Origin: an uncultured Lachnospiraceae bacterium
GTDB lineage: Bacteria; Bacillota; Clostridia; Lachnospirales; Anaerotignaceae
Assembly: GCA_944383855.1 (NCBI GenBank)
Contig: CALWRB010000034.1
Coordinates: forward strand, 425 to 64,424
Direction of reading: 5' to 3'
DNA: 64,000 bases
Part shown: piece after piece, positions 21,890 through 24,217 of the stretch
Position numbering within the stretch: the stretch's first letter is position 1
Layout: each line of letters opens with the position of its first letter
Program-made: the position numbers and the translations under genes
Notes under the pieces: generated by a model
Told to the model about the DNA's origin: nothing
The model's database searches: none
The model's input: only the letters and a program-made list of their open reading frames with translations

Positions 21890-22477
21890 TCAGCCGGTTC
21901 TTTCTTCTTTCTTTAGGGTTTGCTTCCACCGAATATGAAACGGTACATAGGCGGTAAATGCGCCCATAAACCCACTGTAAGAATTATACCAAAAATTCTC
22001 CAAAAAAGCCAACTGAAAGGGTGTCAATTCTTTTTGAAAAAACACATATCGTGCCGTTACCATGGAAAAAAGCAGAAAAAACCCGCTTTTGTCTATGCAT
22101 GCCGCTCGGTATAAAATATCCGCCATTTTGCGCTCCTGCGCCGAAAGCTCATAAACCTGCTCTGCCGCCTGCATCATATCCTCCCAAATCAACAGCTTTT
22201 TCTTGCGTAACAGTACGCGAATGGTATGATGGATCCCCGCCAGACGAAACAGCCGTTTCATGCCGCGCGCATCGAGTGCCTCTACACGTTCCGCAAAAAA
22301 ATTGCTGCCTGTATGCACCAGACACAGCGTTTCCCACAAATCTGCCGCACTGCTTTCCACACACTGCGCATAAAACGCACCATAAAACGGGTCCTCTGCG
22401 TCATATGCCCGTTTGGAATAATATTCTCTTGCCGCTTCCGCCTGCAGCAATGCCTCTTTTTTCTGTTTTCGATCCAT
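21890..22477 (-). CDS. Hypothetical 195-aa protein, translationally coupled to addA
   Basis: Start is the ATG at 22477 with GGAGGAAGG upstream. The stop lies 3 nt before the addA ATG. Predicted mostly helical, with no motif I recognise. Confidence 0.55.
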   Translation of the reverse strand: MDRKQKKEALLQAEAAREYYSKRAYDAEDPFYGAFYAQCVESSAADLWETLCLVHTGSNFFAERVEALDARGMKRLFRLAGIHHTIRVLLRKKKLLIWEDMMQAAEQVYELSAQERKMADILYRAACIDKSGFFLLFSMVTARYVFFQKELTPFQLAFLENFWYNSYSGFMGAFTAYVPFHIRWKQTLKKEERTG

Positions 22478-22701: not shown

Positions 22702-23169
22702 GTGAAGTGTCCGTTTTGTAATTATCCCGATACCAAAGTCATCGATTCCCGTGCGCAGGATGACAATTCCGCCATTCGCCGCCGCAGACAATGCGAACAT
22801 TGCGGCAAGCGCTTCACCACATACGAAAGGATCGATACCATTCCCATTACCGTCATCAAACGCGACGGCACCAGAGAACTGTTTGACAAAACCAAGCTGT
22901 TGGGCGGCATCATGAAGTCCTGTAATAAACGCCCCGTTTCCGTCAAGCAGATCGAATCTTTGGTAGACGATATTGAAAATACGCTCATCGGCAACGGCGA
23001 AAAAGAAGTGGAAAGCAAAATTTTAGGCAATATGGTCATGGACCGTCTGAAAGATTTGGACGAGGTGGCATATGTACGCTTTGCCTCCGTTTACCGCCAG
23101 TTTAAAGACATCAATACCTTTATCGACGAACTGGAAAAACTGTTACATGAAAAAAAAGAAGAAAAATAA
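22702..23169 (+). CDS. nrdR: Transcriptional repressor NrdR
   Basis: Sequence [21 protein letters not shown]...[17 protein letters not shown] is a zinc ribbon followed by an ATP-cone. GTG start sits 9 nt after AAGGAGG; the nearby ATG at 22695 is out of frame. Confidence 0.95.
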
Positions 23170-23184
23170 GGGAAGTGGCAGTCA

Positions 23185-23466
23185 ATGGAAGAAAAGATCA
23201 TCGCCTACTTCGGCTATGAAGAAGCAGGCGCCTCTGTCGCAGCCGACCTTGCCGCGCGTTACCGTGCCTGCGGCTATGAAGTGACCCTTGCTAAGGACAG
23301 CCACGCGCGCTGTCTGGAACTTGCCACGCAGGCAGGCGCAGGACATCTGCTCTATTTTGAAGATGACACCCATCTGCTGTTTTCTCTTTTAACAGGTCAG
23401 ATGCAGGGGTTTACCACCCGTATGCGGACGCAGGATCTGGTCTTGCCGCCGACAGAAAAAAAATAA
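23185..23466 (+). CDS. Hypothetical 93-aa protein co-transcribed with nrdR
   Basis: ORF begins 15 nt after the nrdR stop, with GGGAAGTGG as a weak RBS. No recognisable motif. Confidence 0.45.
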   Translation: MEEKIIAYFGYEEAGASVAADLAARYRACGYEVTLAKDSHARCLELATQAGAGHLLYFEDDTHLLFSLLTGQMQGFTTRMRTQDLVLPPTEKK

Positions 23467-23554
23467 AATAAGACAGGCAATATTTTACAAAATACCTCAT
23501 AGGATTGAACTGTAACACCGTAACACGATTTTATCTGAAGGAGGTATTTGTATT

Positions 23555-23734
23555 ATGTGCGGATTTGGTTGTGGTAATGATAACTTCTTGTGGTTGATCC
23601 TGTTATTGTGCTGCTGCAACGGCAACAACAATAATGTGGGCGGCTGCGGCACAGAAAATTCCTGGATCTGGATCATTCTGCTGCTGTACTGCTGCGGCGG
23701 AAACAATCAGCTGAACAACTGCTCTTCCTGCTGA
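23555..23734 (+). CDS. 59-aa Cys/Asn-rich tandem-repeat hydrophobic microprotein (not in the ORF track)
   Basis: GAAGGAGG at 23537..23544 lies 10 nt upstream of the ATG. My translation is MCGFGCGNDNFLWLILLLCCCNGNNNNVGGCGTENSWIWIILLLYCCGGNNQLNNCSSC. An intrinsic terminator follows 16 nt downstream. Confidence 0.7.
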   Translation: MCGFGCGNDNFLWLILLLCCCNGNNNNVGGCGTENSWIWIILLLYCCGGNNQLNNCSSC

Positions 23735-23749
23735 TTCGCTCCTGCAAAA

Positions 23750-23792
23750 ACGGGCTTCCTCGGGCATCTGTGCCTGTGGAGCCCGTTTTTTT
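23750..23792 (+). terminator. Rho-independent terminator after the microprotein gene
   Basis: ACGGGCTTCC...GGAGCCCGT followed by TTTTTTT. Confidence 0.7.
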
Positions 23793-23845: not shown

Positions 23846-24118
23846 TCAATCAATCGTGCGTAATAGCCGCTCGATCTGTTCTACCTCTATCAGTATCGTA
23901 TCCTCACCGATTTTTTTGATGCAATTCCACGGGATAAAATATGCCTGTTCTCTGGAAAACAGACAAAACCGACCACTCTCTTTCGGAACGATCAGCGTAC
24001 AGATCCGACCGGAAGGTATCTCCAGTATAAAATCTCCAATACACCCTAAACACCCGCCGTCACAGACATTGATGACTTCCTTTTCCTGCAACTGCGAAAA
24101 AAATTCTTCTTTCATCAT
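23846..24118 (-). CDS. ylmC: YlmC/YmxH-family (PRC-barrel) sporulation protein
   Basis: 90 aa with ...KEVINVCDGGCLGCIGDFILEIPSGRICTLIVP...IPWNCIKKIGEDTILIEV, typical of YlmC/YmxH. Confidence 0.8.
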   Translation of the reverse strand: MMKEEFFSQLQEKEVINVCDGGCLGCIGDFILEIPSGRICTLIVPKESGRFCLFSREQAYFIPWNCIKKIGEDTILIEVEQIERLLRTID

Positions 24119-24217
24119 AAATCTCCCCCGTTTGCTCCATAATTTCCTCTCCTTTTTATCTTATGGAAAAAACGCTTGCCCCTTTCCAAAAAAAGCCGCT
24201 TTTCATGCAAAATGCTA

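Follow-up and report, generated by a model that had tools for sequence, protein, structure and literature searches.

A self-contained transcription unit

The window analysed here, a 64,000-nucleotide (nt) stretch of contig CALWRB010000034.1 from an uncultured Lachnospiraceae bacterium, holds a small plus-strand gene for a Cys- and Asn-rich peptide of 59 amino acids (aa), and this peptide and its relatives are the subject of the present analysis. The region forms a self-contained transcription unit made up of a promoter, a short leader, a strong ribosome-binding site (RBS), a 59-codon open reading frame (ORF) and a terminator (Table 1). An original prediction, made from the sequence alone, had proposed this ORF together with its own RBS and intrinsic terminator. 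Its coordinates and translation were exact, a direct count returned the 10 Cys and 12 Asn residues it had given for the product, and the Shine-Dalgarno (SD) sequence lies where it was predicted. Folding of the 71-nt terminator stretch gave a free energy (dG) of −36.8 kcal/mol with z = −6.2, a value equalled by 0 of 200 shuffled sequences; a simple terminator scan had missed this hairpin because it is long and bulged, and folding recovered it. A hairpin and T-run were likewise present 3′ of 40 of 57 genes of the family described below. No paralogue of the peptide was found in the window, no Rfam family matched between positions 22000 and 25000, and the PHROGs gave no match for the peptide, orf93 or orf225.

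Table 1 Features at the peptide locus, numbered from the first nucleotide of the window
Feature	Position	Strand	Remark
Coding sequence, 59 aa, MCGFGCGNDNFLWLILLLCCCNGNNNNVGGCGTENSWIWIILLLYCCGGNNQLNNCSSC	23555..23734	+	ORF and translation
Hydrophobic core 1, residues 11-21, FLWLILLLCCC	23585..23617	+	Family unit; AlphaFold2 helix 11-21, low confidence
Hydrophobic core 2, residues 37-47, WIWIILLLYCC	23663..23695	+	Family unit; AlphaFold2 helix 36-47
Shine-Dalgarno sequence GAAGGAGG	23537..23544	+	10 nt 5′ of the ATG
Intrinsic terminator	23746..23792	+	Long G+C-rich hairpin (23746-23785), then T7 (23786-23792)
-10-like box CATAGGAT	23498..23505	+	Family consensus CATAnnAT, of the type of mother-cell sigma-E and sigma-K
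-35-like element AATATT	23479..23484	+	Holds the ATA typical of sigma-E promoters
Conserved TGTAA	23511..23515	+	At the predicted transcription start region
Box AGACAGGC	23471..23478	+	Fits the Bacillus subtilis SpoIIID consensus RRACAR-Y; abuts the -35 region on its 5′ side
Antisense ORF, 69 aa	23497..23706	-	Read as a shadow, not a gene
nrdR	22702-23169		5′ of the peptide gene
orf93, 93 aa	23185-23466	+	Starts 16 nt past the nrdR stop
YlmC/YmxH family gene	23846..24118	-	TIGR02888, E 2e-21; convergent with the peptide gene

Coding evidence on the two strands

An ORF of 59 codons means little when taken alone, and its standing as a gene derives from conservation. We built a codon alignment of the window gene and 17 distinct Anaerotignum-type genes drawn from genomes and metagenomes (n = 18). 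The sense frame is open in all 18 of these close relatives, and every length difference among them is in-frame. The proportions of synonymous (pS) and nonsynonymous (pN) differences in this frame are 0.60 and 0.20, giving a pN/pS of 0.33 next to values of 1.0–1.2 in three unrelated frames, and variability at codon positions 1, 2 and 3 (0.178, 0.115 and 0.285, respectively) follows the canonical coding order in which position 2 is the least and position 3 the most variable. Across the wider family, an ATG preceded by an SD-like core opens the sense ORF in 56 of 56 members. Conservation of the frame and of both repeats with a bias towards synonymous change, suggested as a check when the gene was first proposed, is what the alignment and the family's architecture (below) display, and the plus-strand ORF is a genuine protein-coding gene under purifying selection.

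The 69-aa ORF that the ORF track lists on the opposite strand is present, as had been noted, and is not the conserved frame. Were it the gene, or were the region a non-coding conserved element, there would be no plus-strand gene at all, a reading to which we attach next to no probability. It can point to an antisense ORF of at least 60 aa that is open in 48 of 56 family members and to a lowish antisense pN/pS of 0.43 in the codon alignment, but both have an explanation in the sense gene: the antisense frame stays open because the sense codons TGC, GGC, AAC, CTG and ATC have no stop-forming complements, and its low ratio is a mirror effect, since the frame shares its wobble positions with the sense frame. 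Openness being insufficient to decide the matter, we rejected the antisense ORF on its translation signals, on the variability of its start codon and length, and on the orientation of promoter and terminator. It has an SD sequence in 1 of 56 members and a TTG start in 39 of 56, ranges in length from 45 to 128 aa and contains stops inside the span of the coding sequence in 9 of the 18 close relatives; the promoter and terminator, moreover, are oriented with the plus strand, and the absence of any Rfam match likewise speaks against a non-coding element. These features mark the antisense ORF as a compositional shadow. Gene callers and ORF tracks will tend to list this shadow in place of the real gene, and the finding explains why an antisense ORF has been called repeatedly at loci of the family. 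The shadow ORF is rich in Q, P and L, and it formed a spurious 15-locus "protein cluster" in our neighbour analysis.

A twin-core, Cys-rich microprotein family

A single-sequence search of 5.8 billion proteins recovered 16 homologues of like size, the best with an E-value of 9e-12; an Anaerotignum sp. protein (P0007) was 59% identical across 100% of the query (E 1.6e-7 in the same 5.8 billion sequences). Searched exhaustively with phmmer, 1.84 billion representatives gave 14 clusters, a profile search extended the set to at least 242 clusters with E-values down to 5e-22, and at least 53 loci were located when each GTDB species was represented by a single genome. On these sequence comparisons, the window peptide belongs to a conserved, uncharacterised family of twin-core, Cys-rich microproteins in the Lachnospirales. 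The family has two branches. The Anaerotignum-type branch, which includes the window peptide, has members of 59–68 aa that begin with MCGFGCGN. The much larger Lachnospiraceae branch has members of 68–106 aa with the N-terminus MSDLAATNCGCGC and is carried by Coprococcus comes, Faecalimonas umbilicata, Mediterraneibacter glycyrrhizinilyticus, Roseburia, Agathobacter, Anaerostipes, Hungatella, Dorea and Claveliimonas bilis. The Lachnospiraceae form also occurs in metagenome-assembled genomes (MAGs) labelled Tyzzerella and Faecalimonas, and the copy in an Epulopiscium MAG (L019) is of the Anaerotignum type.

The internal duplication that the original prediction had seen in the window peptide is real and turned out to define the family. 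Exactly two hydrophobic cores were counted in 55 of 55 distinct peptides, and the core length, with Cys included, is exactly 11 residues in 92 of 110 cores. The repeat unit reads (N/D)-S-x-(I/L)-W-I-I-L-L-L-(C/F)-C-C-G-(G/N)-N, with its W conserved at 100%, its LL pair at 97% and its last Cys at 96%; the two copies in the window peptide are FLWLILLLCCCNG and WIWIILLLYCCGG. As DNA, the two units of the window gene are 57% identical, and the duplication is therefore old. Low-complexity arms rich in Gly, Asn and Cys flank the cores, no signal peptide is present, and the overall composition of the family is correspondingly skewed (G 21%, C 19%, N 14%, L 11%, I 9%, R 0.8%, P 0.1% and K 0%). The AlphaFold2 model of the window peptide places helices on the two cores only, at a low-confidence predicted local distance difference test score (pLDDT) of 55. 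Some metagenomic entries (P0013, P0015, P0026 and P0066; P0014, P0019, P0025 and P0027) depart from the twin-core layout: in single-repeat variants of 35 aa the sequence between the two LLCCCGNN units is cleanly missing, through either repeat recombination or assembly collapse, and several other entries are frameshifted past the first or second core.

The gene had been presented as unlisted, which holds for the 60-aa cutoff of the ORF track and not for the public databases, where homologues already had GenBank and RefSeq entries, although with a misleading name. Many members, including those of Anaerotignum, Faecalimonas, Claveliimonas bilis, Dorea and Epulopiscium, are labelled "chorion class high-cysteine HCB protein 13". 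This label was taken from an eggshell protein of the silkmoth, reflects only composition and misleads as to function; membership in the insect chorion proteins was considered and rejected, as no Pfam chorion family appeared among 21 members at E ≤ 10. More generally, none of the Pfam and NCBIfam models matched any of these 21 members even at that threshold, the family profile matched no sequence in the PDB, and full-text searches of the literature, whether by annotation name, by topic or by sequence motif, turned up no paper about the bacterial family. The gene is accordingly not new to databases; what is distinctive is an uncharacterised family without a curated model and with an unusual architecture, and the finding flags a systematic mis-annotation of its members.

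A conserved promoter of probable mother-cell type

The original prediction had also suggested, as speculation, that AATATT-N13-CATAGGAT upstream of the gene resembles a promoter of the mother-cell sigma-E/K type. This element is present, and in a comparison of 53 distinct promoters no other feature of the locus was conserved as well as the promoter. With the upstream regions aligned on the -10-like box, CATAnnAT is invariant in all 53 and lies 38–60 nt 5′ of the ATG. A TGTAA follows 4–5 nt past this box in nearly all members of both branches, and a Lachnospiraceae subgroup has CATAA. The upstream element of the family can be written CATAnnAT-N3-6-TGTAA plus a GGAGG RBS, and the window carries it as CATAGGAT-TGAAC-TGTAA (23498-23515). 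The TGTAA motif matched no known regulator site or RNA feature. In 342 kb of family loci, the extended promoter element matched 44 times at a member's own promoter and 3 times elsewhere, against a chance expectation of 1.4; the window has one occurrence.

The promoters of sigma-E and sigma-K share a -10 box (e.g., CATATAAT) and differ at -35, where ATA denotes sigma-E and AC denotes sigma-K (Saujet et al., PMC3789822). In the Lachnospiraceae promoters, an A stands at -19 from CATA in 32 of 36 cases and is followed by C or A, that is, an AC with a 16–17-nt spacer, and under the published rule the bulk of the family would therefore be of sigma-K type. The -35 region of the window, GCAATATT, contains an ATA separated from CATA by a 15-nt gap. 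Such an ATA occupies the -35 position in only 5 of 17 Anaerotignum-type promoters; the other 12 have AAGAAA in the region GCAAGAAA. As judged from these sequences, the window promoter is ambiguous between sigma-E and sigma-K.

Immediately upstream of the -35 region, the box AGACAGGC recurs at a fixed place, -27 from CATA, in 18 of 18 Anaerotignum-type promoters, and SpoIIID may possibly bind there. We treat this box only as a lead because the genomes concerned are close relatives and the Lachnospiraceae promoters show no enrichment for it.

A single match in the window would be weak evidence by itself, and the promoter gains its weight from being conserved across a deep divergence and a changed genomic context. 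No sigma-E/K-like match was found within 200 nt 5′ of window genes of at least 100 aa. Taken together, the conserved sequences make it probable that the gene is transcribed by a mother-cell sporulation sigma factor. As far as we searched the literature, this conserved developmental promoter of the family is unreported.

Genomic context

In 20 distinct Anaerotignum-type loci, the gene order is nrdG-nrdD(-), ylmC(+), nrdR(+), orf~90(+), peptide(+), orf190(+), addA(+). Compared with every syntenic Anaerotignum-type locus (L001, L004, L006, L008-L046), the nrdR-orf93-peptide block of the window (22702-23734) has been inverted in place, and no inverted repeats flank it. This inversion bears on the neighbour that had been named ylmC/ymxH in the original prediction. 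The identity of that gene stands, and the window organism thus carries a gene of this sporulation family; the suggested functional link does not, since ylmC lies beyond nrdR in the relatives and its adjacency to the peptide gene is, because of the inversion, specific to this genome. The ylmC/ymxH homologue has a mother-cell-type -10 sequence of its own, CATAAGAT, about 45 nt 5′ of its start (window ~24160-24175, minus strand), for which no clear -35 was found.

The small gene between nrdR and the peptide gene, orf93, keeps its position in every syntenic locus and is only 29–39% identical among them, compared to 78–87% for NrdR. It matched no Pfam, NCBIfam or PHROG entry, a search of PDB sequences gave only noise, and it is best described as a fast-evolving unknown partner of nrdR.

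The context of the Lachnospiraceae branch is entirely different. In 31 of 38 loci, two more genes on the same strand, here termed B and C, lie directly 3′ of the peptide gene. Gene B encodes ~108-205 aa with the motif TPFD...LPYL and gene C ~90-100 aa with the motif NEWMNxP..DPxK (loci L009-L060, e.g., L029 3545-4319, L045 3631-4387 and L056 3454-4087). Neither belongs to a Pfam or NCBIfam family, and neither has relatives in the window or in the Anaerotignum loci, and therefore they cannot explain the window gene. A sigma-E-like pattern, ATA-N15-19-CATAnnnT, precedes gene B in about half of the loci, although the pattern is loose, and a divergent S8 subtilase gene lies 5′ of the peptide gene in ten Lachnospiraceae loci. 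Despite these differing contexts, the peptide gene stays monocistronic in both clades, with its own promoter, RBS and terminator (the last in 40 of 57 genes).

A proposed role in the outer spore layers

Spore formation lets many strictly anaerobic gut Lachnospiraceae survive oxygen and move between hosts. Knowledge of the spore coat comes almost entirely from Bacillus and Clostridioides difficile, and their coat proteins are poorly conserved elsewhere. Our best reading of the family, to which we assign a probability of roughly 0.55, is that of a mother-cell sporulation microprotein that would be built into the outer spore layers. The promoter would be read by a mother-cell sporulation sigma factor, of the sigma-K type in most of the family, and given this assignment the protein would be made in the mother-cell cytoplasm during spore formation. 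As the protein has no export signal, it would be deposited onto the developing spore from the mother-cell side. The cores had been judged too short for a normal transmembrane (TM) helix, and this estimate agrees with ours: an 11-residue helix measures ~16 Å and is therefore too short to cross a bilayer. The outer forespore membrane leaflet or a hydrophobic coat layer might accommodate the two short hydrophobic helices, and the many Cys residues could cross-link the protein by disulfides into the outer spore layers, like other Cys-rich coat and exosporium proteins. This structural placement in the outer forespore membrane, coat or exosporium, with the helices serving as half-bilayer or hydrophobic-layer anchors, is drawn by analogy, and we hold it tentatively, at somewhat less than even odds.

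Several observations weigh against this reading. The assignment of a sigma factor derives from consensus matching and conservation, and loose sigma-E/K patterns match 13–17 times by chance in the window, mostly inside genes. Neither in the window nor in its Anaerotignum clade does the -35 region (GCAA[G/T]A..) follow the AC rule, and 12 of 17 promoters depart from the ATA rule as well. The SpoIIID-like box is kept only in this one closely related clade, its frequency in the Lachnospiraceae promoters being 6 of 36 where about 3 are expected. For a role in the coat or membrane, the argument draws solely on composition and analogy, the structure model is of low confidence, and several cultured carriers are said to sporulate rarely or not at all. 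If the promoter assignment were wrong, the family would become an ordinary conserved hypothetical microprotein.

With a Lachnospirales-wide distribution, a mother-cell promoter signature and a strict architecture, and with no model, structure or literature attached to it, the family is a concrete candidate for an outer-spore-layer component that is specific to this lineage. Its composition also has a practical consequence: because these proteins lack Lys and have hardly any Arg, trypsin-based proteomics would recover no peptides from them, and this may explain the absence of the family from reported spore proteomes.

Alternative explanations

Other functions for a small Cys-rich peptide were considered. 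The precursor of a ribosomally synthesised and post-translationally modified peptide (RiPP), for instance a Cys-rich thiazole/oxazole or thioether peptide whose maturation enzymes are encoded elsewhere, would likewise be small, rich in Cys, Gly, Ser and Asn, and marked by Cys runs, which are of a kind seen in streptolysin-S-like precursors. The conserved Lachnospiraceae N-terminus MSDLAATNCGC could serve as its leader, and an S8 protease is encoded nearby in 10 loci. The suggestion of a RiPP-like precursor in the original prediction nevertheless found no backing in the loci: among more than 55 of them, no YcaO, radical-SAM maturase, lanthipeptide synthetase or ABC exporter, nor any other tailoring enzyme, is encoded within 3–4 kb, and the sole nearby radical-SAM gene is nrdG, the partner of nrdD. 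No NCBIfam RiPP-precursor model (SCIFF/ranthipeptide, TOMM/LAP or lanthipeptide) matches, the hydrophobic cores rather than a leader are the most conserved part, and the promoter is of developmental type, so that a RiPP is very improbable. We consider a small membrane-active toxin, in a module like a type I toxin-antitoxin pair under antisense RNA control, to be highly improbable as well. A hydrophobic peptide of fewer than 60 aa would suit such a module, and the minus strand carries a weak sigma-70-like promoter match within the gene (23606-23577), but matches of this kind are within chance (3 found, 2.3 expected) and no Rfam family matches. Unlike mobile toxin-antitoxin loci, the gene lies on the chromosome, occurs once in the window and keeps strict synteny within the Anaerotignum clade, and its product has cores too short for a membrane-spanning helix and none of the Lys/Arg-rich tail typical of such toxins. 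A metallothionein-like metal or redox buffer, binding metal or iron-sulfur clusters through its Cys-Gly arms, would account for the 19% Cys of the family and for the CxC and CGCGC motifs, which are found especially in Lachnospiraceae members. Two strongly hydrophobic and strictly conserved cores would be unexpected in a soluble metal buffer, however, and no metallothionein or rubredoxin-type family was significant, a lone Zn-ribbon match (E 0.13) being noise. Such a buffer is quite improbable, and a role of this kind would not exclude a spore-associated one.

A different question is whether the twin-core peptides are very divergent but true homologues of YjcZ (TIGR01732), a family of tiny sporulation peptides to which the window peptide had been likened, their core having been shortened and duplicated from the same ancestor. 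Both kinds of protein are tiny (30–70 aa), with low-complexity, Gly-rich arms around an Ile/Leu-rich core, and the layout of Gly-rich arm, Ile/Leu core and Gly is common to the two. Their genes are alike too: they are small and monocistronic, their RBS is strong, and a promoter of mother-cell type, AC-N17-CATAnnnT, lies 40–60 nt 5′ of the start. The two YjcZ genes that we inspected are monocistronic with a strong RBS and carry AC-N17-CATATGCT (L061) and AC-N17-CATACATT (L065). Between the proteins, however, no homology was detectable. The hidden Markov models (HMMs) PF09680 and TIGR01732 matched none of 22 peptides (the window peptide and 21 members) even at E ≤ 10, whereas every genuine YjcZ protein retrieved carries PF09680. 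A profile-profile comparison (hhalign) of the two families returned a probability of ~1% (E 0.056 across 13 columns), with GCG..SWIWIL aligned to GGYGSGFALIVVL as its best segment. YjcZ proteins have one nearly invariant core of 15–17 residues, FALIVVLFILLIIVG (F..L.VVLFILLII.G in the alignment), which is long enough for a TM helix and is set between Gly/Tyr arms, whereas the twin-core family has two 11-residue cores, xxWIILLL(C/F)CC, between Gly/Asn/Cys arms. Nor did the taxa overlap in these searches, YjcZ being found in Bacilli and the twin-core family in Lachnospirales. Shared ancestry with YjcZ is thus quite unlikely, and from these comparisons the analogy holds as one of gene design and not of membership.

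Comparison with known systems

In silkmoth high-cysteine chorion proteins and fungal hydrophobins, which are small structural proteins, a hydrophobic segment self-assembles and Cys-rich arms harden a protective shell through disulfides. An ambitious extension of the outer-spore-layer role, which we regard as unlikely, is that the family forms a bacterial analogue of such materials and constitutes a previously unrecognised structural material of Lachnospirales spores. The two 11-residue Trp-Ile-Leu cores would self-assemble, as half-bilayer anchors or amyloid-like strands, and the CCC/CGC arms would lock the layer by disulfides or bear S-acyl groups. If this were true, the layer would set the surface hydrophobicity, the oxygen and ethanol resistance, and the transmissibility of the spores of abundant gut commensals. 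The chorion proteins and hydrophobins are eukaryotic, secreted and unrelated in sequence, and the likeness to them is one of composition, used as a functional analogy only.

Closer to the proposed role are the Cys-rich proteins of the spore coat, crust and exosporium that are made under sigma-K, such as CotY and CotZ of B. subtilis and CdeC and CdeM of C. difficile. These proteins are much larger than the window peptide, lack twin short hydrophobic cores and, no direct comparison having been made, show no sequence similarity to the family. What they have in common with it is a Cys-rich composition, synthesis in the mother cell, the lack of an export signal and a late mother-cell promoter, features of expression that for the window family we infer. 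In C. difficile, it is coat and exosporium proteins that dominate the sigma-K regulon (PMC3789822).

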